The notes beneath the pieces were generated by a model. It was not told where the DNA came from. It searched no databases and saw nothing but the letters and a program-made list of their open reading frames with translations. Shown piece by piece: positions 14,437-61,334 of a stretch of DNA of 64,000 nt (positions within the stretch are counted from its first letter, which is position 1; each line of letters opens with the position of its first letter). The translations under genes and the position numbers were made by a program. Origin of the DNA: a bacterium (GTDB taxonomy: Bacteria > Patescibacteriota > JABMPQ01 > JBDRIV01); contig JBDRIV010000004.1 in the NCBI GenBank assembly GCA_043815505.1, forward strand, positions 113,671 through 177,670, given 5' to 3'.

Positions 14437-14542
14437 CTCGGTAGTACGATTTAATGATTAATTTAAATTAGATTTCTAGTTTACCTCGATTCTTAAGAAA
14501 AGTATCTTCTACATCTTTTTTCGCCCGATTGTACTACCGGGC
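14437..14542. promoter_or_regulatory. GTAC-core inverted-repeat cassette upstream of glyS
   Basis: Proximal CTCGGTAGTACGATTT abuts the glyS ATG on the minus strand; distal GCCCGATTGTACTACCGGGC at 14524-14542. Confidence 0.5.
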
Positions 14543-14614: not shown

Positions 14615-16159
14615 CTATTGCACAACGTCAAAATAGGCGCATTCACCATCTTCGGCGTCAGGATAAGTTCCCACCTTAAAACACATTCGATAAGTTCCAA
14701 ACGGAGCAGTACCAGGAACAAGGACGGATTTATTTGCAGAAAGAGATCCATTTGGTCCGATAGTTGTTGAAGATGGACTTATTGGATTTCCTCCATAACT
14801 GCTTCCATTTGGTAAATAAGCTTCTAACCAATAATCAAATTGTTTGGTAATTTCTTCATAATTTTTTACAGTGAGTTTGAAAGTGGCATATTCATTTCTG
14901 TGTACTACAGGAGTATTGGCTGTAGCAAATGCTTGGAAAGGAACTGTGGCTGTGTCATAAAAGATATCGCGCCCGGTTCCAGCAAACAAATCATTGGAAA
15001 ATGACACGTGAGCCGATTTATCATTAGCCATTTGAACAAACGAATAAGAAACATCAGGAGAATATCCAGGATTATCATCTTCAAAATTTGTTTCATCAGT
15101 CCAAGTTTCTCCACCATCAAACGATCTCATAAAATATCCTTCTGAAGCAAACCCTGATGTGTTTCTATTATCATCCCAAGCCATATAAATATAGGCAGGG
15201 CGAGCAGAATCAATAGTTACTGTTTGAGCAACTGCTTCTTCAGTACTTACTATTCTAATTGGCTCAAACGATGTGTTACCATGCTTCATTCTGGTAAAAT
15301 ATATATCACCATCAAAATCAAACGACAAATACAAATAATTTTCATCAACTGTACATCCCGGACTATACTGAAAAGAAGTAATTTGTGCTGGGTCAGCCAT
15401 TATGGGTTGTGTGAAAGTTTGTCCACCATCTGTAGAAACTGCTGCCCAAGCATATTCAGTATTATAATCATCTAAAAATCCTTGCCAACAAACTCCAATT
15501 ATATCATTGCGGGTATCTGTACCTTCAAGCACATCCATATGCACAGTTGTACCTTGATAACGTTCAACAATGTTTCCAGCCATGTCACCATCTATAACTT
15601 TAGGTGTGGAAAAAGTTTGACCATTGTTGGTTTTAGAAAAATAAAGCTTTCCATTCAAATATGTATCAAAGTTTTTCCAAACAATATAAGCACTACCACT
15701 TTTTCCCATATCTGCTTCAGGAAACATATTATAACCCACTGTTGAAACAGCAGCCGGATTAGAAAAGGAATCACCACCGTTGGTGGAATAAGCAAAATGA
15801 ACTTGGGTTTCAAAATTATTTCCTCTTACCCAGGAAGCTACTAAAGTTCCTTGTTTGTTAATATCTATAGCTTCATTTTTAGCACCGTCTCCAGCTGGAT
15901 CTAAAACATAAGATGTAAAAGGTCCGACTCCGGCTGTTTGCTTAGCAAAAAGAAATTTAAGTGGTTCTATTTCTTCATTATCATAAACAACATAAACAGA
16001 TTTGTCTGGTCCAACTGCCAATGAATCATGTTGTATGAATTGCCATCCTGGTAGTGCCGACACAACTTGATCAATCCCAAATGTTGTCATGGTGGCTAAA
16101 GCTACAGAAGCTACACCAAAAATTATTAACGAAATTCCGAAAAATAAAACTTTTTTCAT
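14615..16159 (-). CDS. secreted BNR/Asp-box repeat protein (sialidase-like beta-propeller)
   Basis: N-terminal signal peptide; repeated S-x-D-G-G-x-T-F/W boxes (STNGGDSF, STDGGQTF, SFDGGETW). Confidence 0.6.
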   Translation of the reverse strand: MKKVLFFGISLIIFGVASVALATMTTFGIDQVVSALPGWQFIQHDSLAVGPDKSVYVVYDNEEIEPLKFLFAKQTAGVGPFTSYVLDPAGDGAKNEAIDINKQGTLVASWVRGNNFETQVHFAYSTNGGDSFSNPAAVSTVGYNMFPEADMGKSGSAYIVWKNFDTYLNGKLYFSKTNNGQTFSTPKVIDGDMAGNIVERYQGTTVHMDVLEGTDTRNDIIGVCWQGFLDDYNTEYAWAAVSTDGGQTFTQPIMADPAQITSFQYSPGCTVDENYLYLSFDFDGDIYFTRMKHGNTSFEPIRIVSTEEAVAQTVTIDSARPAYIYMAWDDNRNTSGFASEGYFMRSFDGGETWTDETNFEDDNPGYSPDVSYSFVQMANDKSAHVSFSNDLFAGTGRDIFYDTATVPFQAFATANTPVVHRNEYATFKLTVKNYEEITKQFDYWLEAYLPNGSSYGGNPISPSSTTIGPNGSLSANKSVLVPGTAPFGTYRMCFKVGTYPDAEDGECAYFDVVQ

Positions 16160-20034: not shown

Positions 20035-20137
20035 CCCGGTAGGACAACTTACTGCTTAATTAATATATTAACTTTACTTTTGTGTTCAATTTTTAGAAAG
20101 TTTTGTATGAGTTTTGTTCCCAGTTGTACTACCGGGC
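20035..20137. promoter_or_regulatory. GTAC-core inverted-repeat cassette upstream of the methyltransferase gene
   Basis: Proximal CCCGGTAGGACAA abuts the ATG on the minus strand; distal CCCAGTTGTACTACCGGGC at 20119-20137. Confidence 0.5.
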
Positions 20138-20761: not shown

Positions 20762-20983
20762 TTTTAAATGATAATGATGGAGATTATTTCCCCTCCTGAA
20801 GCATAAGAAACCTGTTATAATTTTATTATAGCATATTTTGGACAAAAAAATCCCACTTAAGTTTCCAGTTACTATTGTTGTCATATTAAAAGAAAAAGAC
20901 CCGCGCTAGTTTTTAGAAAACTAACGCGGGCCGAAACGACGAATCCAAGGACTAAGACCAAAGTTCAGATGAGAACTGAGAGC

Positions 20984-21658
20984 TTAAGTCCAAAGAACTC
21001 TAGTTACTTTCGAGGACGGACGCAGGATTTTGCTGGCGCTCCCGTCGTCATGGTCGACCCAGGAGCAGCCCCAGTCCCAGGAACCATCGCCAAACCGACA
21101 GAGGTAAAGAACGTTGCGACCGCCGTCGGGGTTGCGGAGAATGGCACCCCAGAACGACAGGAACTTGATGCCCTTCGTGTCATACAGCCACTTGAGGGTC
21201 TTATGACCCTTCTCCTGCCACAGCGCCATGAAGTCTTGCTCATCGAGCTGGACATCTTCGGGAACTGCCTTGATGCGCTGAAGACGTTCCTTTCCGTTGA
21301 TGTAGGATTCACCTTCGAGATAGTCCTTATTGACAATCCTTCCAGCATCCAGATTGCCACTTTCGCGCTTTCCCACTCGCTCGATGATGCTCCAGCCTTT
21401 GCCCAGGAACTGTTCGGGGTTGAAGAGCTGGCGCTCGAGCAGATGAGGCTCGGTGGCACGCAGGTGAGCTTCCACGCGAGTACGCAGGTCGGCGAGGGTG
21501 TTTTCGGCGATTTCTGCTCCCTGTGCTTCGATCACCTGCTGGCTCGCCTCTCTTGGCAGATCGCTTTTCCTCCCCTTTGCCACGATGACATCGGCGAGTT
21601 TTGTCAGCTGTCCACCAGTGATAGTTTCTGCGGATGGGGACACGGTGTCTTTACCCAT
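20984..21658 (-). CDS. hypothetical protein in a high-GC island (about 224 aa)
   Basis: About 58-60% GC against about 33% genome; strong SD (AAGGAGG, 8-nt spacer) before ATG at 21658; no recognisable domain. Confidence 0.6.
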   Translation of the reverse strand: MGKDTVSPSAETITGGQLTKLADVIVAKGRKSDLPREASQQVIEAQGAEIAENTLADLRTRVEAHLRATEPHLLERQLFNPEQFLGKGWSIIERVGKRESGNLDAGRIVNKDYLEGESYINGKERLQRIKAVPEDVQLDEQDFMALWQEKGHKTLKWLYDTKGIKFLSFWGAILRNPDGGRNVLYLCRFGDGSWDWGCSWVDHDDGSASKILRPSSKVTRVLWT

Positions 21659-21785
21659 GGCGACATCCTCCTTATGTTGTATAGTACACGTCCTAGAACG
21701 CACAGAGCCTATCTCTGCACATTACTAAGACTGTGTATTATATATTATTATATCTTTTTTTCAACCATTTTCAGGAAAATATCCC

Positions 21786-24747: not shown

Positions 24748-25518
24748 TTAAGCGCTTTTTTCAAGCGCCTTAATGTGACGAACAAAGTCTTTGCTAGGCA
24801 AATGGCGATCTAATATGGCTTTTATAAAATCACTTAAAATATCTTCCAAATTTTGCCAAGCTTGGTCTTCAGGAGAAATTTTGGCCACAGTGGCCAATTC
24901 ATTTTTTGTTATCAATCGCAAAAGTTTGATGGCGCCATCAGAAATTGCCACCGCTTCATCTCTTTTCGAAGCACAACCTGAACAAACCACGCCACCAAGC
25001 AAATCCGAAAAACCATTTCTTTGAGGTTTTAAAGCGCGCCCGCAACGCACACATTTATCAGCTACTGGGGCGTGACCTGTAATAGTTAGAAGTTTAATTT
25101 CAAAAGCGCGCAAAATAATATGCCTATTTTTTGATTGCGCATTTTCATTTAACCATTCTAAAGTATTTTTTAGCAGTGTAAATATTCTAGTATCGTTGTG
25201 GCCTTCTGGTGTCATCAAATCAACCATTTCTAAAACACTTCCCAGCTGACTATAAATTTCTAAGTCGTTGCGCAAATGTTTGTAAGCTTCAATATTTTCA
25301 GCTGAAGTTATCACATCAAGATTTTTGCCATTGGCAATAATTAAATCGGTCAGCATGAATAATTCTAGATGTCCGGAACGACGACTCTTTGCCTTGCGAA
25401 TACCTTTGGCAATAGCGCGCAGTTTTCCCTGATGACGAGTATAGAAAGTAATAATCTGGTCGGCTTCAAATATATTGTTTTTTCGAAGAATTATTCCTTC
25501 GGTTTTATATGTTGGCAC
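24748..25518 (-). CDS. recO: DNA repair protein RecO
   Basis: 256 aa; RecO-like N-terminus and C-x2-C...C-x2-C zinc motif. Confidence 0.75.
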   Translation of the reverse strand: MPTYKTEGIILRKNNIFEADQIITFYTRHQGKLRAIAKGIRKAKSRRSGHLELFMLTDLIIANGKNLDVITSAENIEAYKHLRNDLEIYSQLGSVLEMVDLMTPEGHNDTRIFTLLKNTLEWLNENAQSKNRHIILRAFEIKLLTITGHAPVADKCVRCGRALKPQRNGFSDLLGGVVCSGCASKRDEAVAISDGAIKLLRLITKNELATVAKISPEDQAWQNLEDILSDFIKAILDRHLPSKDFVRHIKALEKSA

Positions 25519-25751
25519 AAATTAGATTAAAGATAAAAGAGCAAGGAGAAAAATAACTAGTACTTATATTCTAACAGATTTTATCGCATTTTACTTAAAA
25601 AGGAAACTCTTGCTTAAAACCCCCTTAGGACTTTTCTATAGAATAGTCCTATTTTAAATTTTGCTTGACTATTTTTACAAATAGCTCATTATTAACTGAA
25701 ATGATCTTTATGAATTGAAACGTTCATTTGTTTAACATCAGGAGGCACACC

Positions 25752-26261
25752 ATGAAATACTGGCTATTGTCTTTGCTTCTGCTGCTGACAACTGTGAGTT
25801 GTCTGGCGCAAAATTCTCCCCTCTCCAATCTGGTTTATCCAGAAATTCGGGAGGAATTTAGAAATTTGGTTGAGGCTCGTGATGAAAATGTTATAGATCT
25901 GATTCTAACTCACTGTTATAACACCAAATTTCCCTGTTGTGTGGGATCAAGTTATAAGGAGTTGCGAGAAGCATTTCCTTATGCCAACGAAAATTCAGTC
26001 CACTTTATGGTAGAAGTTTGTGAACGCCTGACGGAAATTGAGAACTACTATCAGTGGTCAGAATTTCTGGCTAAGTTCTGGCAACACAATCCTAACTATC
26101 TTAATCTCAGATTTTTAAAGTCTAAATGTCGTAGTAACGTTAATGAAAATTGGATAATTCGCAGTGTTCTTATCGGTTCAATTTTCATTTTGATGGCAGA
26201 CAATCCGGAAATTACTATTCCTGATGAAGTACTGAATTTCTTCCAAATCGCCCGGGAATGA
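25752..26261 (+). CDS. secreted Cys-containing hypothetical protein
   Basis: AGGAGG SD 6 nt before ATG at 25752; signal peptide MKYWLLSLLLLLTTVSCLA; GC higher than genome. Confidence 0.5.
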   Translation: MKYWLLSLLLLLTTVSCLAQNSPLSNLVYPEIREEFRNLVEARDENVIDLILTHCYNTKFPCCVGSSYKELREAFPYANENSVHFMVEVCERLTEIENYYQWSEFLAKFWQHNPNYLNLRFLKSKCRSNVNENWIIRSVLIGSIFILMADNPEITIPDEVLNFFQIARE

Positions 26262-26287
26262 GCAATCATTCCCTTTCTTTTTGCCTT

Positions 26288-26385
26288 CCCAGTAGTACAA
26301 TTAAATGATTCTTGTGTTTTATATTTTCTTATCTAATTTGCTAAAAAAGTTAGACTTTTCTATGTTCTACATTGTACTACTGGGC
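26288..26385. promoter_or_regulatory. GTAC-core inverted-repeat pair
   Basis: CCCAGTAGTACAATT (26288-26302) and its exact reverse complement AATTGTACTACTGGG (26371-26385). Confidence 0.5.
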
Positions 26386-26423
26386 TTATTTAAGCTATTT
26401 TATGTTTTATGTTTGCTAGAAGC

Positions 26424-26452
26424 TTGACAATTTTATGTTTTGGTAGTATAAT
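26424..26452 (+). promoter_or_regulatory. consensus sigma70-type promoter TTGACA-N17-TATAAT
   Basis: Exact TTGACA (26424-26429) and TATAAT (26447-26452) with a 17-nt spacer, about 85 nt upstream of the GTG-start gene. Confidence 0.5.
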
Positions 26453-26536
26453 ATAGCTCAAATAAAAATAAAGAAAGTTCTCTAACCCCCGCTTTCCGTA
26501 TTCTGGAAAAACAACTTAAAAAAGGGAGGACGGAAA

Positions 26537-26860
26537 GTGACAAAAAGAGACGTTTTGGTGGTGATGGCAATGTTACTCTGCATGACCGCGGGAAACATTG
26601 CAGGATTATTCCTCGCAAATGAGAACCCAATCCAGCAGATCTGGGAAGGTCCCGACGGGAACTTCAAGCTCCTGTTGGTTCTGTTCCCCTTCATCGTCAT
26701 CACCTTCTGCGTTCTCTGCATCCGCGAGGTGCGGAGAACCAGAAACAAACAGTGGGTGACACTGTATACCGTTTTGGCTATCGCCGGCATGGCAGCGGCC
26801 ATCGGAGTTGGGATTTGGAGTAGTAAGTGCTTCATCGCACTTATGGCTCCATCCTGCTAA
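26537..26860 (+). CDS. small membrane protein (107 aa)
   Basis: GTG start preceded by a GGGAGGA SD; three hydrophobic helices; about 50% GC. Confidence 0.5.
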   Translation: MTKRDVLVVMAMLLCMTAGNIAGLFLANENPIQQIWEGPDGNFKLLLVLFPFIVITFCVLCIREVRRTRNKQWVTLYTVLAIAGMAAAIGVGIWSSKCFIALMAPSC

Positions 26861-26869
26861 CCCCCTCAA

Positions 26870-26914
26870 CCCGCTCGTAGCAACCTTAATTGGAAGCTGC
26901 AGCGGGTTTTTTTT
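26870..26914 (+). terminator. intrinsic terminator
   Basis: CCCGCT...AGCGGG hairpin followed by T8. Confidence 0.5.
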
Positions 26915-26990
26915 GACAAAAATAGTATTTTTCGCTTTACTGCAAATATAAACAAGTGATCTTTTTACAAACTACATAAGGAGAATATTG

Positions 26991-27263
26991 ATGACCACAA
27001 AAGAATTTTTCAGAAGTTGGAGATTTCTCGTCTACTTGATATTATTGGTTCCGCTTTTTCTATCTGGATGGTGGACTGGTCATCTCATGCAAATGGGTGA
27101 AAATTCCACAAACTCTCCGGTCATTGGGATGGTCCTTATCAGTATTTTGTTCGTACTTTCAATCTTTACTTACATTGAAAAGGTAAGTGAGGGATTTGGA
27201 TTCTGCATTTTCTTTTTCTCACTTCTTGTCGTGGCTGGTAGCATGATCCTGTCATGTTATTAA
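26991..27263 (+). CDS. small membrane protein (about 90 aa)
   Basis: AAGGAG SD 8 nt upstream of ATG; two TM helices. Confidence 0.4.
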   Translation: MTTKEFFRSWRFLVYLILLVPLFLSGWWTGHLMQMGENSTNSPVIGMVLISILFVLSIFTYIEKVSEGFGFCIFFFSLLVVAGSMILSCY

Positions 27264-27327
27264 GCAAATCAAAAAGACCTCGGGATTTAGTTTTACTAAA
27301 TTCTCAAGGTCTTTTAAATTTGTAAAA

Positions 27328-30300
27328 CTATTTTGCTAGGGCAAGTAGAATTCTCTCGCCTTCTATTTCCAGTTCTTTTTCAATTTTAAATTCACTTTTT
27401 TTGTGAATAATATTTTCTGCCAGCACTTCTTTTTTTATTGTGTCAGAATATTTTTCTAAAACCTTTTTTAAATCTTTAGAATCTGTTTCAGCAAACAAGG
27501 TAATTCTATCTTCCACATTAAATCCCGCTTCTTTACGTAATTCCTGAACAAAGCGCACCAAATCGCGCATCATGCCTTCAAGTTTCAAATCTTTATCTAT
27601 TTCTATGTTTAAGAATAATACTTTGTCTTTTTCTGCAACAACAATATATTGAGAATTGAAAACAATTTCACTTTCTTTTTTTGGCACATAATCAATCCTA
27701 TATTCGTTATCCTCTAAGATATAATTTCCTATTTTTAGTTTTAATCCATCGTCAGTGGTAACAAAAGAGAATTTTTTTGAACCTTTTTCAATTTCTTTAA
27801 GTTTTTCTTTGTATTTTTTACCTAAAACAGAGTAATTTAAATTTATTTTTGCTTCTGTTAGATCATCAAAATCGCCTCTATTAATAATTTCATATTCTTT
27901 CACATTTAGTTCTTCACAAATTGCTTTAACTAAATCTATATCATTTATTAATTTGCTATTAAAATTAAAGACTCGAATTCCTTTTAATGGTTGACGAACT
28001 TTAATTTGAGCTTGATCGCGAGCGGTATGACCAAGACTTACCATAGTTAGAACATCTTGCATTTGTTCGTTTAATTCAGTATCAATTAATTTTTTATAAC
28101 TTTTAGGGAAATCACAATAATGAACTGACTCTGGAGCTTTTGTGTCAACTGCTCGCACCAAATTCTGATACATCTCCTCGGTCGCAAAAGGAATAATTGG
28201 AGCGAGAATTTTGATAACTGTTGTTAATACTTCATATAAAGTTTGATAAGCGGCCAATTTGTCGTTGTCAGATTCAGACTTCCAGAAACGACGACGACTC
28301 CGCCTCACATACCAAGTGGAAAGATCTGTTATAAATTTCTCCACCTTTTTCATTAACTTCGTTAAATCATATTTTTCATAATCCTTGGTAGCATCTTCTA
28401 CAAAAGCATTTAGGGCAGAAAGAATCCAGCGATCCAATTTATTTTCTTTTTTAACCTGTTTTTGCTTCGGATCAAATTTATCCAAAGCTGCATAAGTTGT
28501 GAAAAATGAATAGACATTCCAAAGGGTTAGCAATTTCTTGCGCATTTGATCAGCCAAACCGTAACCAAAACGAATATTCATAAAAGGATTTTGCGAAACA
28601 TACAACCAGCGCATGGCGTCGGCTCCCATTTTTTCCACCGCTTCATCGAACCAAATCGTATTGCCTTTACTCTTGTGCATCGACTCACCTTTTTCGTCCA
28701 TCAAAGTCGCATAAGCTAAAACTTTTTGATATGGAGTTACGCCTTCAAGAGTTACTGACATAAAAAGCGTGGCATAAAACCAAAGTTTAATTTGCGGCAC
28801 TGATTCGGAAACAAATTCAGCTGGAAACCACTTCTGCCAGTATTTTTTATCTTCCAAATATTTTAAAGTTGAGAAATAAACAATTCCCGCATCGAGCCAA
28901 CAATCCCCCACATCAGTCACGCGGGAAACAACTTCTGCACATTTTGGGCATTTAATTTTTATTTCGTCAATCCACGGTCGGTGTAATTCTGGAAGTTTAT
29001 CAACCCTTTCCGGTTCCACAGCCAGCTTTTTTAATTCTTCTTTGGAACCAACAACCATAAATTCACCACATGTACATTCATAAAATGGTAAAGCTAATCC
29101 CCAAAATCTCTTGCGAGAAATCGGCCAGTCGCCCATATTATCCAACCAATCCTGCATGCGCTTCCCTGCCGATTCTGGCATCCAATCAACTTTGCCTGCT
29201 TCTTTTTTCATCAGTGGACGAATTTGTTCCACATCAATAAACCATTCACTGGTGATACGGAAAACTAATTCTTCTTTACAACGCCAACAAATTGGATAAC
29301 GATGTCTAGTATTAGTAATGCGAAAAACGAATTTTTTCTCTTTCAAATCTTTAAAAATTTCGTCGGCGGCGTTCGCTGCCACTTGGCCGGTAAAATCACC
29401 GAAGCCGTCAATGTAAACACCAAACTCATCTAGCGGAGCAATAACTTTTAGCTTGTGGATTTTTCCCAATTCATGATCTTCCTCACCACAACCCGGGGCA
29501 ATATGAACAATGCCAGTTCCTTCTTCTTCGCCAACTTCTTCCCAAGGAATTACGATTCGTTCAGAATTTTTTTGCGCTGGCAATTCATCAAACGGCCCCT
29601 GGTATTTCAGACCTACTAAATCTTTTCCTTTTATTTCTTCAATTACTTCACCGTCTTTAATTAAATCTTTAGTTCCTTCAGATAAAATATATATATTTTT
29701 ACCACTTTTTACTTTGACATATTTTAGATCGGGATGAACTGCAATAGCCACATTGGCCAGCAATGTCCATGGAGTTGTTGTCCAAACGAGAAAATTTTCG
29801 TTATTTTTTCCTTGAAGCGGCATAGCCACATAAACTGAACGATGTTCCAATTCTTTATAACCTTCGTCGGAAAGTTCGTGGGCAGAAATGGCTGTACCAC
29901 AACGCGTACACCATGGCATTGAATCTGTTCCTTTTTTCAACCAACCTTTGGCCTGACATTTTTTCAAGAAATACCAAATATATTCATTATTGGTCTCAGA
30001 CATTGTGTAATAAGAATTCTCCCAATCCATCCATTGTCCGAGGCGAATTGACTGGTCAGTTTGAACCTTAGAAAATTTTTCTACGCGCGCCCGACAAGCT
30101 TTAGAGAATTTGTCCAAACCAAATTTTTCAATGTCTTTTTTGGAATTAAATCCTAAATCTTTTTCTACCTCTACTTCCACCCACAAGCCTTGGCAATCAA
30201 ATCCATTTTGATAACGCTGATCAAATCCCTGCATGGCTTTATAGCGCTGAAAAGCATCTTTAATGGCTCGCCCCCAAGCATGGTGCACACCCATGGGATT

Positions 30301-30453
30301 ATTGGCAGTTATGGGACCATCAATAAAAGACCAGGGTTCTTTGCCCTCGTTTTTCTTTTGTAATTTGACAAAGGAATTATTCTCTTGCCAAAACTGCAAA
30401 ATCTTTTCTTCCAGCTTGGGAAAGTCAACTTTGGGATCTACTTTTTTGAACAT
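27328..30453 (-). CDS. ileS: isoleucyl-tRNA synthetase
   Basis: 1041 aa class I aaRS; KMSKS-like MHKSKGN; editing and C-terminal domains. Confidence 0.9.
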   Translation of the reverse strand: MFKKVDPKVDFPKLEEKILQFWQENNSFVKLQKKNEGKEPWSFIDGPITANNPMGVHHAWGRAIKDAFQRYKAMQGFDQRYQNGFDCQGLWVEVEVEKDLGFNSKKDIEKFGLDKFSKACRARVEKFSKVQTDQSIRLGQWMDWENSYYTMSETNNEYIWYFLKKCQAKGWLKKGTDSMPWCTRCGTAISAHELSDEGYKELEHRSVYVAMPLQGKNNENFLVWTTTPWTLLANVAIAVHPDLKYVKVKSGKNIYILSEGTKDLIKDGEVIEEIKGKDLVGLKYQGPFDELPAQKNSERIVIPWEEVGEEEGTGIVHIAPGCGEEDHELGKIHKLKVIAPLDEFGVYIDGFGDFTGQVAANAADEIFKDLKEKKFVFRITNTRHRYPICWRCKEELVFRITSEWFIDVEQIRPLMKKEAGKVDWMPESAGKRMQDWLDNMGDWPISRKRFWGLALPFYECTCGEFMVVGSKEELKKLAVEPERVDKLPELHRPWIDEIKIKCPKCAEVVSRVTDVGDCWLDAGIVYFSTLKYLEDKKYWQKWFPAEFVSESVPQIKLWFYATLFMSVTLEGVTPYQKVLAYATLMDEKGESMHKSKGNTIWFDEAVEKMGADAMRWLYVSQNPFMNIRFGYGLADQMRKKLLTLWNVYSFFTTYAALDKFDPKQKQVKKENKLDRWILSALNAFVEDATKDYEKYDLTKLMKKVEKFITDLSTWYVRRSRRRFWKSESDNDKLAAYQTLYEVLTTVIKILAPIIPFATEEMYQNLVRAVDTKAPESVHYCDFPKSYKKLIDTELNEQMQDVLTMVSLGHTARDQAQIKVRQPLKGIRVFNFNSKLINDIDLVKAICEELNVKEYEIINRGDFDDLTEAKINLNYSVLGKKYKEKLKEIEKGSKKFSFVTTDDGLKLKIGNYILEDNEYRIDYVPKKESEIVFNSQYIVVAEKDKVLFLNIEIDKDLKLEGMMRDLVRFVQELRKEAGFNVEDRITLFAETDSKDLKKVLEKYSDTIKKEVLAENIIHKKSEFKIEKELEIEGERILLALAK

Positions 30454-31857: not shown

Positions 31858-33570
31858 CTACATTTCCTCTACAGTTTCTATTCCCAGTAACAATAAACCA
31901 TTTTTCAAAATCTCAGCTGAAGCTTTAACAATAGCTAATTTCAATTCCTTGTTTTCGGTAGCTTTTAAAACTGGAACTTTTTGGTAATAGGAATTGATCA
32001 TTTTAGCTAAATCATACAAATAGTTAGCAATGGTATGGGGGAAATAATTTTTAGCGGCGTCCTCAACAATTTCTGGAAAACGATATAAATATCTAGCCAA
32101 GATTTCTTCTTCACTTTTTAAATCTCCGGAAACTTCTTTAATTTCGGTTTCTGCTTTTCTTAAAATACTTTGCAAACGAGCATAAGTGTATTGCAAATAT
32201 GGTCCCGTGTCGCCATCAAAACTCAACATCTTGTCCCAAACAAAAGTTACATTTTTGGTACGCGATTGTGAAAGGTCGCCATATTTAATGGCTCCCACAC
32301 CAATTTTTTTAGCAATCTCTTCTTTGTTTGGCAAATCAGGATTCTTTTCCGCAATTATTTTCTTGGCTTTTTTAATCGCTTCATCAATAAATTTTTCTAA
32401 ATCAACAACATTGCCTTCTCGGGTAGACATTTTTCCTTCTGGCAATCTCACCATACCAAAACTTACATGAACATTTTCTCCCGTTTTATCACCCAGTAAT
32501 TCTACGATCTTGAAAAGTTGATTGAAGTGATGAGTTTGGTCTGAAGCCACAACGTAAACATTTTTCTTATAATTATATATTTGCTGACGATATTTTAAAG
32601 TGGCTAGATCGCGCGTGTGATAAAGTGTGGCGCCGTCCGATTTGATTAAAATACAACGACCTAAATCATATTTTTCTAAATCAATAAAAACGGAACCGTC
32701 GGTATCAATGGCAGCAATTTTTTTCTTTAAAAGCTCATCAATGACAACCTGCATTTTATCTTTGTAAAAACTTTCGCCCAGTTTATTGTCAAAAGGAAGA
32801 ATTCCCAAAATATTATAAAGCTTTTCAAATTCTGTTAAACTAATTTCTACAAACCATTTCCACAACTGCAAATTCTCTTCGTCACCTTCTTCTAATTTTT
32901 TAAATTCCTTTTTGCCTTTTTCACGCAAATCTGGTTGATCATTTATTTTCTGCGTCATTTCCTGATAAAGTTTAGCCAGCTCTTGAACTGGATTGGCTTC
33001 AACTTTTTTCTTATTGCCATCATGTTTGTAGGCGTAAAGTAAAATTCCAAATTGCACTCCCCAGTCTCCCATGTGATTATCGGTTACAACGTCGTATCCC
33101 AAAAATTTAAAAATTCTGGTTAATGAGTCGCCAATAATGGTAGAACGCATGTGACCGACGTGCATAGGCTTAGCAACATTGGGCGAAGAATATTCAATGA
33201 TTACTTTTTTATTCTGCCCCAAGGTAGAAGCGCCATATTTATTTTTAGCTTCCAAAATATTCTGCAATTCCTTCTGCAAAATTTCTGTTGCTAAAGTTAT
33301 ATTTATAAATCCCGGACCAGCCACTGCCACTGCTTTTATTAGTTCATTTTTCTCTAGCTGCAATTGTTCAGAAATTTCTGTTGCTAAGTTCTTTGGATTT
33401 TCTTTCAATTCTTTCGCTAAAATCATGGCAATATTGGCAGCAAAATCACCATGAGCAAGATCATCTGGATGTTCTAAAATCCATTTAGGCATCTTAAAAT
33501 TTGCCTGTTTTTTGTTTGTAACAGACAATGTGGCCTTGGCAACCAATTGTTTTACCCTATCTCTAATCAT
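31858..33570 (-). CDS. argS: arginyl-tRNA synthetase
   Basis: 570 aa; SSPNVAKPMHVGHMRST HIGH region. Confidence 0.9.
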   Translation of the reverse strand: MIRDRVKQLVAKATLSVTNKKQANFKMPKWILEHPDDLAHGDFAANIAMILAKELKENPKNLATEISEQLQLEKNELIKAVAVAGPGFINITLATEILQKELQNILEAKNKYGASTLGQNKKVIIEYSSPNVAKPMHVGHMRSTIIGDSLTRIFKFLGYDVVTDNHMGDWGVQFGILLYAYKHDGNKKKVEANPVQELAKLYQEMTQKINDQPDLREKGKKEFKKLEEGDEENLQLWKWFVEISLTEFEKLYNILGILPFDNKLGESFYKDKMQVVIDELLKKKIAAIDTDGSVFIDLEKYDLGRCILIKSDGATLYHTRDLATLKYRQQIYNYKKNVYVVASDQTHHFNQLFKIVELLGDKTGENVHVSFGMVRLPEGKMSTREGNVVDLEKFIDEAIKKAKKIIAEKNPDLPNKEEIAKKIGVGAIKYGDLSQSRTKNVTFVWDKMLSFDGDTGPYLQYTYARLQSILRKAETEIKEVSGDLKSEEEILARYLYRFPEIVEDAAKNYFPHTIANYLYDLAKMINSYYQKVPVLKATENKELKLAIVKASAEILKNGLLLLGIETVEEM

Positions 33571-38535: not shown

Positions 38536-38795
38536 CCAAAAATATTCATGCTTTTGTATGGATTTTTTTGATTGAGATGCATGAACATTTATTCTTTAAG
38601 GATTTGCTTTAATAAATATAATAGTATAATTTAATATTAATGTGGGGAAACGGCGTGTTCCTACCTAACAAACTCGTTAATGATCTCACCAAATATGTTT
38701 AAATACTGCTTGTTTACCTTCTCTAGGTAAACACCAACTATGTCCCATAACTGTCTCAGAAACAGTTTAACACGCCGTTTCTCCGTTTCTCTTGA

Positions 38796-38893
38796 CCCAG
38801 CCCCAGTTTTATAGAACTCGTGGTTTTGAAAATTATTAATGCTAATGAATTTCTGAAATTCAAGTACTTGAATTTAGCAAAACTGGAGCTGGG
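38796..38893. repeat. long-loop member of the CCCAGCYCCAGTTTT/AAAACTGGRGCTGGG hairpin family
   Basis: 15-bp arms with one mismatch and a loop of about 68 nt; related copies at 55346-55440, 48298-48328 and 10731-10769. Confidence 0.5.
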
Positions 38894-38921
38894 TTGACAG
38901 ATTTTACAGTTTAAGTATAAT
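38894..38921 (+). promoter_or_regulatory. consensus sigma70-type promoter TTGACA-N16-TATAAT
   Basis: Exact hexamers at 38894-38899 and 38916-38921. Confidence 0.45.
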
Positions 38922-38929
38922 TTCTAATG

Positions 38930-39450
38930 CCATCAATCGGCACTTGATCATTTGATAATATGGGGATACGGGGGCGTAGACGAGAGAGTTTGTTTGCATG
39001 TAACTTAGTGGAAATTCGACGAACAGCACCATTGGCGCCCGCACATCGGTTAACGCGGTTTCGCCAGACTTGGTGCTACGTGGTTTATCGCCATCGACGC
39101 AAGACGCGGATTAACTATCCGCGCATCCGCCGGACAGCCCAGCGAGCCTTGCTCGCTGACGTTATCAACATTTTCACGCAGGTGTAGATCTTATTGGAAG
39201 ACCTTCGTCCTCGCAAAATAAAAACGCGACTCTATCGAATGTCTGCTATCAGCACCATAAACACCATGCAATCCAGTATGGCTTTATGGATCGTTGATCC
39301 TTGACTGCATCTAACCTGCGTCTTCGTGCTCTCTCTGATGCGCCTCCGTCCCCTACCCATACCCAACCAGAGGAGAATTTCTACCCCCTTCCCCTCTGCC
39401 CACCGGGGCCACAGCAAATCTTCATCGAGATGCTGTGGTCCCATTTTTTT
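38930..39450 (+). ncRNA. candidate structured ncRNA (about 520 nt)
   Basis: Promoter-to-terminator unit with no credible ORF, GC-rich with many local hairpins; terminator GGGCCACAGCA...UGCUGUGGUCCC plus U7 at about 39405-39450. Confidence 0.3.
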
Positions 39451-39499
39451 ATTAAATATTTGACAAAATATTTCTTGATATTATACTAATAAAGCTCTT

Positions 39500-39830
39500 T
39501 AGATATAAATATGTGGTGTGGTGCGGGGTGGCTGATAAGCTGATACGGTTGAGTGCTGTGTAAAAATCGTAATGGATATCCTTATTGGGGTCACGGCTAG
39601 ATTCCCATGATGTCCGAGGAACAGGAGTAAACCTGTACACACGTGCTGTGTCGCAGCATCGCGCAAAGTCAGTTAGTTCTGCATGCGCAGGCCCGCCAAG
39701 ATCAGTACCGAAAGGGAAAAATCGTTGGCCAATAATTCTGGGCACCATCTCGCCGAAATATCGCTTTTTCATCCCCCCGCACCCACCCTTTTTCAAGGCA
39801 GATTTGGACCAAGTCCTTTCTGCCTTTTCT
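39500..39830 (+). ncRNA. candidate structured ncRNA (about 330 nt)
   Basis: TTGACA-N16-TATACT promoter at 39461-39488; 5' GGTGCGGGG pairs with 3' CCCCGCACC; terminator AAGGCAGA...TCTGCCTT plus U-run at about 39787-39830. Confidence 0.25.
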
Positions 39831-39840
39831 TTTTCCTTGA

Positions 39841-39937
39841 CCCAGCAGCACAAGTATCTACACAAATATTAAGTATTTAAATTATTTATACTATTCTATT
39901 ATATCTGAAATAATAAAATGGAATTTGTACTACCGGG
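39841..39937. promoter_or_regulatory. GTAC-core cassette upstream of infC
   Basis: Degenerate distal CCCAGCAGCACAAGTA; proximal AATTTGTACTACCGGG (39922-39937), 57 nt before the infC TTG start. Confidence 0.4.
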
Positions 39938-40578: not shown

Positions 40579-40685
40579 CTCGGTAGTACAACCGGACTAA
40601 TAAAATAAGTATAATCCTTTCTGATAGTATTATGCTGATTAAATAAGTAAAAAACATTAAATAATCATTAAGTTGTACTACCGGG
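40579..40685. promoter_or_regulatory. GTAC-core inverted-repeat cassette upstream of rpmI
   Basis: Distal CTCGGTAGTACAACCGGA; proximal AGTTGTACTACCGGG ends at 40685, ATG at 40686. Confidence 0.55.
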
Positions 40686-41327: not shown

Positions 41328-41358
41328 TAAAAAAATAAGGGCTGCCCGAATGGGTAGC
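41328..41358. terminator. hairpin terminator after rplT
   Basis: AAGGGCTGCCC-GAAT-GGGTAGCCCTT. Confidence 0.5.
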
Positions 41359-41395
41359 CCTTTCTAGTTTGTTGTGTTCGTGTCGTCACCTGTTG

Positions 41396-42049
41396 TTAGG
41401 CGACGGCGGTTTCTTCGACGGTGGGTTCGGCCGGCTTGTCTTCCGACTTGGGGGGAAGCCACGCTTCTTCGACGATCGGCGGACGCATGTCCTCCGGCAT
41501 GTCGAACTCGTTGGTGCCGGGACGCGGGTCGTAGGCGAAGTCGACCCACAAGTAGTTGTTGAACCACTGGAACCAGGCCGATGTCTTGACGCCGATTTTC
41601 ATTCGCACCTGGTAGTCGAAGTGAGTCGGAAACAGCTCCCGCATCTCACCGAAATCAATGGCACGCTGGTAGACCTGTTGTTGCCCCCGCTTGTCGATGT
41701 AAACCAGTCGCACCTGCGACTGGACGATCCTCGAGACGCGCTCGAAGTCGGCGGCCGGTGCCCAGGCGATGGCCTGGTACTTGGCCCGATGTCCTGGGGG
41801 AGCCTCGACGATCCGCATAGGGATCACCTTCTCCAGTTCGGGGCGTGCGAAGAGCCGTTTCTTCTTCAAATCGAAGAAAAAGCCATTGCCGATGGGCTCG
41901 ATGGCTCGACCCGCCAAACGATGGACGTAGCATCCTTCGCGTCGTCCGTTGATGACGACTGTAGTGAAGAAAAACTCACTGTCGCCGATCTTGGCAACAG
42001 TACCGACCGTATTGATCGGCTTGGACTGACTCTGATATTGTCCTCTCAT
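41396..42049 (-). CDS. hypothetical protein in a high-GC island (about 217 aa)
   Basis: About 60% GC; AAGGAGG SD 7 nt before ATG at 42049; acidic Pro-rich C-terminal tail; no recognised domain. Confidence 0.6.
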   Translation of the reverse strand: MRGQYQSQSKPINTVGTVAKIGDSEFFFTTVVINGRREGCYVHRLAGRAIEPIGNGFFFDLKKKRLFARPELEKVIPMRIVEAPPGHRAKYQAIAWAPAADFERVSRIVQSQVRLVYIDKRGQQQVYQRAIDFGEMRELFPTHFDYQVRMKIGVKTSAWFQWFNNYLWVDFAYDPRPGTNEFDMPEDMRPPIVEEAWLPPKSEDKPAEPTVEETAVA

Positions 42050-42151
42050 GGCTTTTCCTCCTTGCCTTAGAGAGATTATATTATGGCGCAAAATTTTACA
42101 TGCGCCACCGAACACAAATTGAAACGAACATCATAACAACAAAAACATTGC

Positions 42152-42179
42152 ATTATACATTATTTGTAATATTTGTCAA
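42152..42179 (-). promoter_or_regulatory. consensus sigma70-type promoter (minus strand) TTGACA-N16-TATAAT
   Basis: TTGACA at 42179-42174 and TATAAT at 42157-42152, reading the minus strand. Confidence 0.45.
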
Positions 42180-42240: not shown

Positions 42241-42340
42241 GCCCAGTAGTACAATTTACTTATTGAATTTTATCCTATTTTTTTGAACTTGTGAATAAAG
42301 AAGAAAATATTATTATCTAAGACAATTGTACTATCTGGGA
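42241..42340. promoter_or_regulatory. GTAC-core inverted-repeat pair
   Basis: GCCCAGTAGTACAATTT and CAATTGTACTATCTGGGA, between the subtilase stop and the promoter of the high-GC gene. Confidence 0.45.
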
Positions 42341-46561: not shown

Positions 46562-46676
46562 TTGGAAAAAAGCCCGGTTGTACAACCGGGAACAATCAGA
46601 ATACAAACCTCTCTTATTAATAATATCGTAATAGAAAGATAAATACAATTATTAATCATTAATTTGTACAACTGGG
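46562..46676. promoter_or_regulatory. GTAC-core inverted-repeat cassette upstream of the PHP gene
   Basis: Distal perfect palindrome CCCGGTTGTACAACCGGG; proximal AATTTGTACAACTGGG ends at 46676, ATG at 46677. Confidence 0.55.
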
Positions 46677-59076: not shown

Positions 59077-59340
59077 TCAAAACGATTCCCACTGATTTTT
59101 TATGCTGGGTTTTTTAATGAGGATGCACCAGGGCGGAACACTTATAATTTTTGAACGCAGGAGACCATCGGTGGCAACATCTACATCTACAATGACCAGC
59201 AACTGGCTGATAGAGTTTACTTTGCCACTAAAAGTAATCAGCTCAAGTCCCTTCATCCCATCAATAGCATATAGAACGTCTACCTCTTGTTGGGGTTGAA
59301 TGATGTCGCCGCGCAAATTCATAAGTCGTGGAGATGCCAT
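59077..59340 (-). CDS. hypothetical small protein (87 aa)
   Basis: Strong SD (AAAGGAGG, 7-nt spacer); about 45% GC. Confidence 0.4.
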   Translation of the reverse strand: MASPRLMNLRGDIIQPQQEVDVLYAIDGMKGLELITFSGKVNSISQLLVIVDVDVATDGLLRSKIISVPPWCILIKKPSIKNQWESF

Positions 59341-60733: not shown

Positions 60734-61334
60734 ATTACTTGCTTAGAGTTTTATTATGTTAATTTTAACAACAAAAATGGTGATTGTAAATTATTTTGAG
60801 CATGAAAAAGCGGGCCCAGAAATTTTTGAGTCCGCTTGTGGAGTTTTTGCAATTACTATTTCGGAGCCATCGAAATAATGCAGATACCATGCTCTTGATT
60901 TAGAAACCATAATTAACCTCTAAAAATATTATCGATTTCAATGAGCGACGGTCAGTCACAATAGTGGATAACTTTGAAAACGGCCAAATCACAAAGATCG
61001 AATAAGGAAGTTCTATCACTGCCATCCAATCCGATGTTCGTTTCTATTTTGTGGCAGCTTCATACATCACAATCTCCTTTTTAATTTATAAAAATTTCCC
61101 ATAACCATTTTTTAACATATGGCCATATGAAGGTGAAAAAAATGTAAGCTACAAAAACAAAATTCAATCCGAGTACCAAAATTCTATCATACCGAATTTT
61201 AATTTTCCCCTTATTCATAGCAACCTCCCATTTTTTTTGTGAAAGTTCATCGAACGCAGAAAACTAATAAGTATATGTTATTGAGTGATTTTTGTCAACT
61301 CAAAAATGCTTACATAAATTATTTCATATTCTCA

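Follow-up and report, generated by a model that had tools for sequence, protein, structure and literature searches.

A lineage-specific insertion between ileS and recO with three predicted orphan expression cassettes and a MITE-like repeat

Several described systems bear on the small proteins and the short repeat considered here. In bacteriocin/toxin-immunity loci, such as those of the pore-forming colicins and of class II bacteriocins, the immunity proteins of the pore-forming kinds are often about 100-180 aa long and have 3 to 4 transmembrane (TM) segments. Type I toxins such as those of hok and tisB are usually shorter (<60 aa), with one TM segment, and the "morons" of prophages are defined as self-contained promoter/open reading frame (ORF)/terminator units of deviant composition. 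Among repeats, MITEs (miniature inverted-repeat transposable elements) and the attC sites of integrons are the closest described elements. Here, we describe a 1809-nt island between recO and ileS that carries three ORFs, called P1 to P3 below, and one copy of a dispersed inverted repeat. It lies in contig JBDRIV010000004.1 of assembly GCA_043815505.1, within a stretch of 64,000 nt (positions 113,671 to 177,670 of the forward strand) that was analysed as a whole and is called the window.

Taken together, the evidence makes it likely, in our judgement, that the island is a lineage-specific and probably piecemeal gain of three independent cassettes for accessory envelope proteins. In an uncultured bacterium of low GC content, probably a member of the Candidate Phyla Radiation (CPR)/Patescibacteria, foreign DNA would have come to separate ileS from recO, ancestrally a translationally coupled pair.

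The insertion and its foreign composition

In three contigs with best-matching IleS proteins, L001 (GCA_030603885.1) and L003 and L004 (both from ENA), the genes follow the order GT4, ileS, recO, DUF11/CLIPPER and tgt, which is also the order in the window. In all three, however, ileS and recO overlap by 4 nt (ATGA; ..AAAAATGAAAA..), where the window has a gap of 1809 nt (25519-27327) holding three plus-strand ORFs, on the strand opposite to both flanking core genes. The closest IleS relatives are 56-63% identical to the window protein, and RecO is 39% identical to its counterpart. Since IleS and RecO of the window align with the relatives' proteins from the first to the last residue (RecO was compared with that of L001), and since the two genes overlap in the relatives, the insertion is a clean one: on the basis of these alignments, the 1809 nt are a lineage-specific insertion that leaves intact both the stop codon on one side and the start codon on the other. 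In two other IleS relatives, L002 and L005, recO is not located downstream of ileS, and a recO-based scan of GTDB genomes returned no relative. The features of the island and its borders are as follows (SD, Shine-Dalgarno sequence; TIR, terminal inverted repeat; promoter matches are counted over the 12 consensus positions; z scores compare folding energies with those of shuffled sequences).

24748..25518, minus strand: recO, with a GTG start and without an SD; left border of the insertion (Pfam RecO_N and RecO_C)
25519..27327: lineage-specific insertion, 1809 nt, from the recO start to the ileS stop
25626..25651: near-perfect palindrome of 26 nt, TAGGACTTTTCTA|TAGAATAGTCCTA, flanked by the recO start and the P1 promoter-like site
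25665..25692, plus strand: weak promoter-like site of P1, TTGACT-16-CATTAT, 9/12, a consensus match only
25740..25745, plus strand: P1 SD, AGGAGG, 6 nt upstream of the ATG
25752..26261, plus strand: P1, 169 aa, NCBI ABIE68_04550; predicted signal peptide, six Cys, orphan
26254..26283, plus strand: predicted intrinsic terminator of P1, an 8-bp stem (hairpin 26254-26273) over the stop codon and then a T-run; -12.5 kcal/mol, z = -2.9
26285..26387: MITE-like element E3, with 14-nt TIRs (26288-26301 and 26371-26384), an AT-rich interior and CTT/CTT at 26285-26287 and 26385-26387
26424..26452, plus strand: predicted sigma-70 promoter of P2, TTGACA-17-TATAAT, 12/12
26490..26539, plus strand: predicted leader hairpin of P2, in which 26490-26504 pair with 26525-26539 (SD and GTG); -16.8 kcal/mol, z = -2.3
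26524-26529, plus strand: P2 SD, GGGAGG, 6-7 nt from the start codon
26537..26860, plus strand: P2, 107 aa, GTG start, NCBI ABIE68_04555; three predicted TM segments, orphan
26868..26915, plus strand: predicted intrinsic terminator of P2, a GC-rich stem and then eight U; -23.7 kcal/mol, z = -4.3
26913..26941, plus strand: candidate promoter of P3, TTGACA-17-TTTACT, overlapping the T-run of the P2 terminator; recognised by eye, its -10 hexamer having failed the scan rule
26978..26983, plus strand: P3 SD, AAGGAG, 7 nt upstream of the ATG
26991..27263, plus strand: P3, 90 aa; three predicted TM segments, absent from the public protein collection
27264..27323: long hairpin, predicted to be a bidirectional terminator of P3 (plus) and of the convergent ileS (minus); -24.3 kcal/mol, z = -6.5
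27328..30453, minus strand: ileS, right border of the insertion; promoter at 30505-30477 and a 23-nt leader without an SD

The three ORFs, their SDs, the P2 promoter and the inverted pair within E3 had all been reported in the original prediction, at or within a few bases of these positions. That prediction had also called the locus an accessory island and had suggested comparing the recO-ileS junction among related genomes; the comparison supports it, as the three genes are not conserved at this junction, differ from native genes in composition and carry no housekeeping annotation. At the insertion borders there is no tRNA or tmRNA target, and within 10 kb on either side we found no phage, integrase or plasmid gene, the neighbours being DUF11, tgt, recO, ileS and GT4. 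Of the features by which genomic islands are recognised, the locus thus shows absence from relatives at a conserved position and deviant composition, whereas hallmarks of mobility are lacking.

As a consequence of the insertion, recO would have been uncoupled from ileS; it now begins with GTG and would be transcribed from the left end of the insert, where a minus-strand promoter-like site (25680-25651, 9/12) adjoins the 26-nt palindrome. This palindrome is possibly an operator or a leader hairpin. As a separate observation on the other border, the IleS of the window is 1041 aa long; those of its closest relatives have 974 aa, and the surplus of ~67 aa falls in a nonaligning segment of ~80 residues (residues ~860-940) near the C-terminal domain.

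The insert differs from its surroundings in base composition and, more sharply, in how its genes begin. Its overall GC content (37.6%) is close to that of the window (35.6%), but P2 reaches 51.5%, with a 300-nt maximum of 53%, in agreement with the roughly 50% first estimated for the middle gene. For comparison, we used the 44 native ORFs of at least 120 aa in the window, including rpmI, rplT, infC, ileS, recO and tgt. The GC content at third codon positions (GC3) is 0.267 +/- 0.035 in this native set, with a maximum of 0.346, versus 0.376 in P1, 0.429 in P3 and 0.667 in P2 (z = +3.1, +4.6 and +11.3, respectively), so that all three exceed the native maximum. The spread among P1, P2 and P3 suggests separate origins and piecemeal acquisition. 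Likewise, all three island ORFs are preceded by an SD, as are at most 2 of the 44 native ORFs (Fisher's P = 6e-4), which bears out the earlier remark that these strong SDs are unlike the starts of native genes. When two further ORFs of foreign composition in the window, G1 and G3 (described below), are included, the contrast becomes 5/5 versus at most 2/44 (P = 1e-5).

According to a published survey (PMC9297842), about half of Parcubacteria have no detectable anti-SD motif in their 16S rRNA. The SD contrast might therefore offer a clean natural test of whether ribosomes without an anti-SD still use SDs, and an SD may serve in such genomes as a simple marker of recent gene transfer. The promoters do not discriminate in the same way: near-consensus sigma-70 promoters number 16 in the window versus 4.6 expected, and since native genes also use them, the perfect promoter of P2 is no mark of foreign origin. 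Several native promoters on the minus strand (33601-33574, 30505-30477 and 16218-16190, the last one perfect) are followed by very short, SD-free leaders (3 nt for 31858..33570, 23 nt for ileS and 30 nt for 14615..16159), which suggests leaderless or SD-independent initiation.

All three proteins are orphans within the collections searched. P1 and P2, both annotated as hypothetical proteins, have no match other than themselves in a set of 5.8 billion clustered proteins. For P1, an exhaustive HMMER search of 1.84 billion representatives returned P1 itself and a single further match, P0003 (E = 9e-14, in nine stretches); this is a 1962-aa eukaryote-like protein of Ig repeats, and we rejected the match as spurious, its score being inflated by the repeats. 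P1 to P3 have no match in Pfam, PHROGs, PADLOC, NCBIfam or PDB sequences beyond subthreshold hydrophobic noise (YwiC and 7TMR-DISM), and the same five collections gave no toxin, immunity, transport or regulatory domain for them. Similarity to mobile DNA was absent from 50,697 phage records (blastn), 72,556 plasmids (tblastn) and IMG/VR contigs; P3 has no relative in Joint Genome Institute (JGI) metagenomes; and the exact sequences of P1, P2, P3, RecO and IleS are not on record in the contig index that was consulted. Rfam gave nothing credible in the island at either the gathering or a permissive threshold.

Three cassettes, their products and competing explanations

We propose that P1, P2 and P3 are three stand-alone expression cassettes rather than one module, each with a canonical SD and an intrinsic terminator of its own. 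The first would encode a Cys-containing, probably all-helical protein of ~17 kDa that is exported by the Sec pathway. P1 begins with a hydrophobic signal sequence, MKYWLLSLLLLLTTVSCLA, and contains six Cys, including a CC pair in the motif KFPCCVGSS; the signal peptide and this motif, like the multi-TM nature of P2 and P3, had been noted before and were found again in the sequences. By eye, P1 can be assigned either a signal peptidase I site (CLA|QN), in which case cleavage after Ala19 would release the protein, or a weak lipobox (TVS-C17), in which case a lipid would anchor it at Cys17. It is acidic (21 D+E versus 15 K+R), and a single-sequence AlphaFold2 (AF2) model is all-helical.

On the basis of the layout, the original prediction had proposed a bacteriocin/toxin-immunity module or a small secreted effector with membrane partners. 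P1, with its predicted signal sequence, would supply the exported toxin, and P2 and/or P3, being small multi-TM proteins encoded downstream on the same strand of an accessory locus, would be the immunity proteins. The layout turned out to be the sole basis for this idea. No toxin, immunity, processing or export domain was detected in the family collections named above, and P1 has no recognisable lytic or pore-forming region in addition to being acidic. Nor do the genes appear to be cotranscribed, since a terminator, the 97-nt repeat and a promoter separate P1 from P2, and another terminator separates P2 from P3; finally, the three genes differ among themselves in composition. We consider a toxin-immunity module improbable.

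The product of the second cassette, P2, would be a 107-aa membrane protein with three TM segments, made from a consensus promoter and a heavily folded mRNA in which a leader hairpin covers the SD and the GTG start codon; by eye, its loops follow a positive-inside pattern (MTKRD / acidic loop / REVRRTRNK). In fold energy, the P2 coding mRNA reaches -130.6 kcal/mol versus -100.7 +/- 5.8 kcal/mol in dinucleotide shuffles (z = -5.1), which compares with -4.65 for the tmRNA of the window, -0.4 to +0.7 for native coding sequences, -2.0 for P1 and -1.2 for P3. The ribosome-binding site (RBS) regions of P1 and P3 are unstructured. This combination suggests that P2 is highly transcribed with low or conditional translation, and translation is probably gated by the leader, as judged from the predicted pairing. 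Such a design, in which the strongest possible promoter is followed by a self-occluding leader and a tmRNA-like mRNA structure, is unusual for a membrane protein.

Because P2 is GC-rich and overlaps long antisense ORFs, we asked whether the P2 unit (about 26459-26915) is instead a structured noncoding RNA (ncRNA) with an incidental ORF. Like the ncRNA candidates near 39 kb in the same window, it is a GC-rich islet in an AT-rich genome, with a promoter and a terminator of its own, its fold z score of -5.1 beats that of the tmRNA, and long antisense ORFs are present in the region. The coding signals in the frame of P2 argue otherwise. GC contents at codon positions 1/2/3 are 0.47/0.41/0.67 (chi-square 15.7, P = 4e-4), a periodicity that is absent from the tmRNA and from nc1 and nc2, two GC-rich noncoding candidates nearby. 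Of the six frames, only that of the ORF yields TM-like segments, T at codon position 2 amounts to 42% (49% in P3), the SD lies at an ideal distance from the start, and no Rfam match was obtained even at the permissive threshold. We therefore regard the noncoding explanation as very unlikely. P1 shows a weaker periodicity (P = 0.03), and from these sequence signals P1 and P2 are very probably real genes; P3 is probably one as well.

The same features could be expected if P2 alone were a self-toxic membrane protein, silenced posttranscriptionally in the manner of type I toxins or holin-like proteins, with P1 and P3 as unrelated neighbours. A consensus promoter combined with a leader that pairs with both the SD and the start codon, a strongly folded mRNA (z as above) and a hydrophobic product would fit this explanation. 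However, with 107 aa and three TM segments, P2 is larger than typical type I toxins; it lacks, by eye, the charged C-terminal tail of class I holins; and it has no homologues. A consensus scan revealed no minus-strand promoter-like site in or beside P2, and no small RNA (sRNA) gene was detected there. Self-toxicity of P2 thus seems quite improbable to us.

The third cassette would encode a membrane protein of 90 aa, again with three TM-like segments and otherwise unrelated: P2 and P3 have no mutual similarity, and no paralogue of P1, P2 or P3 occurs in the window. Since P3 is absent from the public protein collection, it is apparently unannotated.

Alternatively, P1 to P3 may be nonfunctional, either as decaying remnants of DNA that was once transferred or as ORFs that arose by chance in a spacer that had grown longer. 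None of the three has homologues, P3 is unannotated with weak periodicity, structure prediction was poor, and no mobility genes are left. Against this stand three intact SD-start-ORF-terminator units with undisrupted frames, a well-formed signal peptide and six well-formed TM segments, unstructured RBS regions in P1 and P3 and the perfect match (12/12) of the P2 promoter; chance ORFs, moreover, would lack optimally spaced SDs in this genome, since an SD precedes no more than 2 of the 44 native genes. In our judgement, the probability that the genes are nonfunctional is low.

The self-contained nature of the units, together with their deviant composition, also recalls morons left behind by a phage or another once-integrated mobile element. 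Of the three promoters, those of P1 and P3 are only weak matches. The neighbouring genes are core genes, though, with no phage, integrase or plasmid gene within the 10 kb searched on either side, and neither the phage, plasmid and IMG/VR searches nor PHROGs provided any similarity. A moron origin is, in our view, highly improbable.

Additional cassettes of the same kind occur in the window. Two further GC-rich islets, G1 and G3, are built like P2, in that a strong promoter and a 55-100-nt leader lead up to AAGGAGG and a GC-rich orphan ORF, which is followed by a terminator:

20898-21764, minus strand: G1 cassette, located right after tgt; ORF 20984..21658, 224 aa, ABIE68_04530, 56% GC, GC3 0.65
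41337-42179, minus strand: G3 cassette, between rplT and a subtilase-like gene and just downstream of repeat copy E6; ORF 41396..42049, 217 aa, ABIE68_04625, GC3 0.74

The G1 cassette has an 11/12 promoter (21764-21737), a structured leader, TAAGGAGG and a strong terminator (20932-20898), and that of G3 has a 12/12 promoter (42179-42152). Both proteins are singletons without family or phage matches, G3 has no relative in JGI metagenomes, and its AF2 model (pLDDT 40) was unusable for a fold search. No similarity links G1 with G3, and neither resembles the neighbour of tgt in L001.

Other islets in the window were recorded alongside these. Small SD-led orphan ORFs occur on the minus strand in intergenic islets at 59077..59340, 60791..60910 and 61081..61218 (87, 39 and 45 aa); one of them lies behind a TTGACA-17-TATACT promoter (61298-61270), and none has a Pfam match. 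In the interval from the tmRNA to infC, a candidate structured ncRNA of ~280 nt (39460-39835, plus strand) extends up to repeat copy E4. Its features include a TTGACA-16-TATACT promoter, pairing of the 5' end with the 3' end and a terminator of its own; the fold z score is -3.6, codon periodicity is absent, and Rfam gave no match. Another GC-rich transcript candidate, poor in ORFs (38894-39200, plus strand), starts with a 12/12 promoter (TTGACA-16-TATAAT, 38894-38921), shows no periodicity and a weak fold (z = -1.8) and is preceded by long inverted repeats (~38647-38896).

A number of points weigh against the gain of three functional envelope cassettes. The relatives used for the comparison are distant and essentially form one clade, the junctions of L001 and L003 being almost identical, so the insertion can be dated only loosely. 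Its borders carry no integrase, border repeat or other insertion scar. In L001 itself, recO, tgt and a few more genes are preceded by SD-like motifs, so that the SD contrast may have to do with the class of a gene and not with its origin. Confidence in the AF2 model of P1 is low (pLDDT 54), too low for a fold search. For P3, the GC periodicity is not significant (P = 0.5), public annotation is missing, and the lack of homologues refers to narrower collections only, not to the large protein databases. With zero homologues overall, conservation cannot serve to test coding or function, and all of the support comes from sequence.

Even so, the gain of independent cassettes accounts best for the whole of the evidence, and P1 to P3 would most likely have an accessory role in the envelope or at the surface of a reduced cell that is possibly symbiotic. 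The island would then be of an ordinary kind, namely, a few orphan envelope genes confined to one lineage; genes of this sort are believed to shape the surface of reduced CPR cells and their interface with the host.

A dispersed MITE-like repeat

The original prediction had pointed out a GTAC-core inverted pair just upstream of the P2 promoter. Its arms, CCCAGTAGTACAAT and ATTGTACTACTGGG, indeed form a perfect 14-nt inverted repeat at that position, but the pair is not a local site: it is one of seven copies in the window.

14437-14541: arm pair E1
20035-20136: arm pair E2
26288-26384: arm pair E3, in the island, 97 nt
39841-39937: arm pair E4
40579-40685: arm pair E5
42242-42338: arm pair E6
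46573-46676: arm pair E7

The termini are conserved (CCCGGTAGTACAAC...GTTGTACTACCGGG), with variable interiors. When one genome per GTDB species was scanned for a pattern of two arms, the repeat was located at 17 loci outside the window, 16 of which are in metagenome-assembled genomes (MAGs) labelled Parcubacteria, Paceibacterota, Minisyncoccia, Saccharibacteria, Gammaproteobacteria (one) or simply "bacterium". With these outside copies (L006 to L018 and L020 to L022) and the seven in the window, the total is 24. The copies are 97-113 bp long, have terminal repeats of 13-21 nt and are devoid of coding capacity. What is conserved is the terminal 13-14 nt, sometimes ~20 nt, and the interiors are mostly unrelated, including those of the seven window copies. 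Two copies at L008 are nevertheless alike throughout (~85% by eye) while having different flanks, and the copies in MAG WY1.bin77 have interior blocks in common. No lone or widely spaced arms were seen in the 64 kb of the window plus ~200 kb of other loci, a search that did not extend to the wider genomes, and the repeat is absent from 23 kb of the relative L001.

The flanks carry what would be target-site duplications. Perfect 4-nt direct repeats flank 15 of the 17 outside copies (chance P about 1e-34), reading, when oriented, TATG (11 copies), TATA (2), CTTA (1) and TTTG (1). In the window, the flanks are 3 nt long (ATG, AAG, CTT or TTG[A]) and perfect in four of seven copies (chance P = 2e-6). 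Twelve or 13 of the 24 copies lie 0-1 nt from the ATG of a long ORF, and the ORFs that they abut are unrelated, encoding, for example, SMC, glycogen synthase, a histidine kinase, an AI-2E transporter, an O-antigen ligase, a ProRS-like protein, a methyltransferase, L35 and PHP. From these sequence features, the repeat is best described as MITE-like; strikingly, it either prefers start codons or is retained at them. In the literature that was searched, we found no description of this repeat or of MITEs in CPR, and the family, which is shared across CPR lineages, has apparently gone undescribed so far. Its conserved termini, its TATG duplications and its adjacency to start codons deserve separate study.

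Several other interpretations of the repeat were considered and rejected. Since it is dispersed, E3 was ruled out as a local operator of the P2 promoter, and since the genes downstream of the copies are functionally unrelated, so was an operator shared by a regulon. A sense-strand RNA stem was discarded because mismatches between the arms show no preference for G-U (two G-U wobbles versus four A-C), which speaks for terminal repeats at the DNA level. The direct repeats and the scattered positions exclude an attC site, and a resemblance to the 16S 806R primer region was judged to be coincidental.

For the island, the repeat has two implications. Because a resident repeat lies inside it, the island is genuine chromosomal DNA of this bacterium. 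As to the order of events, the ~100-bp element may have inserted later, between cassettes 1 and 2, or may already have been present there. Separately, E3 and E6 were seen to share sequence beyond the arm, TTGTACTACTGGG-CTTAWWTAAG (GGG-CTTAWWTAAG), at 26372-26397 and 42254-42229. Each of these two copies lies 40-60 nt upstream of the 12/12 promoter of a GC-rich orphan (P2 and G3, respectively); with two cases, this is a lead only.

It is tempting to speculate that two regimes coexist in this genome, and perhaps in many CPR genomes. Core genes would be SD-less, often with the repeat at the start codon and flanked by a duplicated (T)ATG, and accessory cassettes would be self-contained (P1 to P3, G1, G3 and the small ORFs at 59-61 kb), the repeat itself being a mobile element that targets start codons and brings an expression or processing signal. 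We consider this scenario unlikely. If it were true, the repeat might also mark or assist the insertion of cassettes.

Comparison with known systems

Bacteriocin/toxin-immunity pairs of the pore-forming colicin and class II kinds resemble the island in that an exported protein is followed by small multi-TM proteins at an accessory locus. The island differs from them in having neither homology nor cotranscription and no export, processing or regulatory genes. With the mRNAs of type I toxins such as hok and tisB, P2 shares a strong promoter, a very stable mRNA fold, the placing of its SD and start codon in a leader helix and the hydrophobic nature of its product; it is, however, two to three times longer than these toxins, has three TM segments and is without a detected antisense RNA gene or family members. 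Prophage morons and acquired orphan islets come closer, as they too are autonomous units of differing composition between conserved genes that are left intact. The difference from morons is the lack of a prophage context, phage homology, an integrase and att-like repeats, and the units here carry an SD that the surrounding core genes almost never use.

The repeat, for its part, is like integron attC sites in its imperfect inverted repeats (attC, ~60-140 bp), in its ends (...CAAC / GTTG...), in its variable interiors and in its position beside orphans of deviant composition. In contrast to attC sites, its copies are scattered among housekeeping genes (e.g., infC-rpmI), with no array and no integrase, and they have direct repeats, which attC recombination does not give; the cassettes here also differ from integron cassettes in having their own promoters. 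MITEs such as the Correia/NEMIS elements of Neisseria, the pneumococcal RUP and the Rickettsia palindromic elements are a better match: like them, the repeat is ~100 bp long, has TIRs of 13-21 nt and short flanking direct repeats, occurs in several intergenic copies per genome and lacks a transposase, and it includes a near-identical pair (at L008) with different flanks. We know of no autonomous partner element for it. Compared with these MITEs, only the termini are conserved, and this across distant CPR lineages, with interiors that are mostly unrelated; the flank is typically TATG (ATG in the window), and about half of the copies abut start codons.

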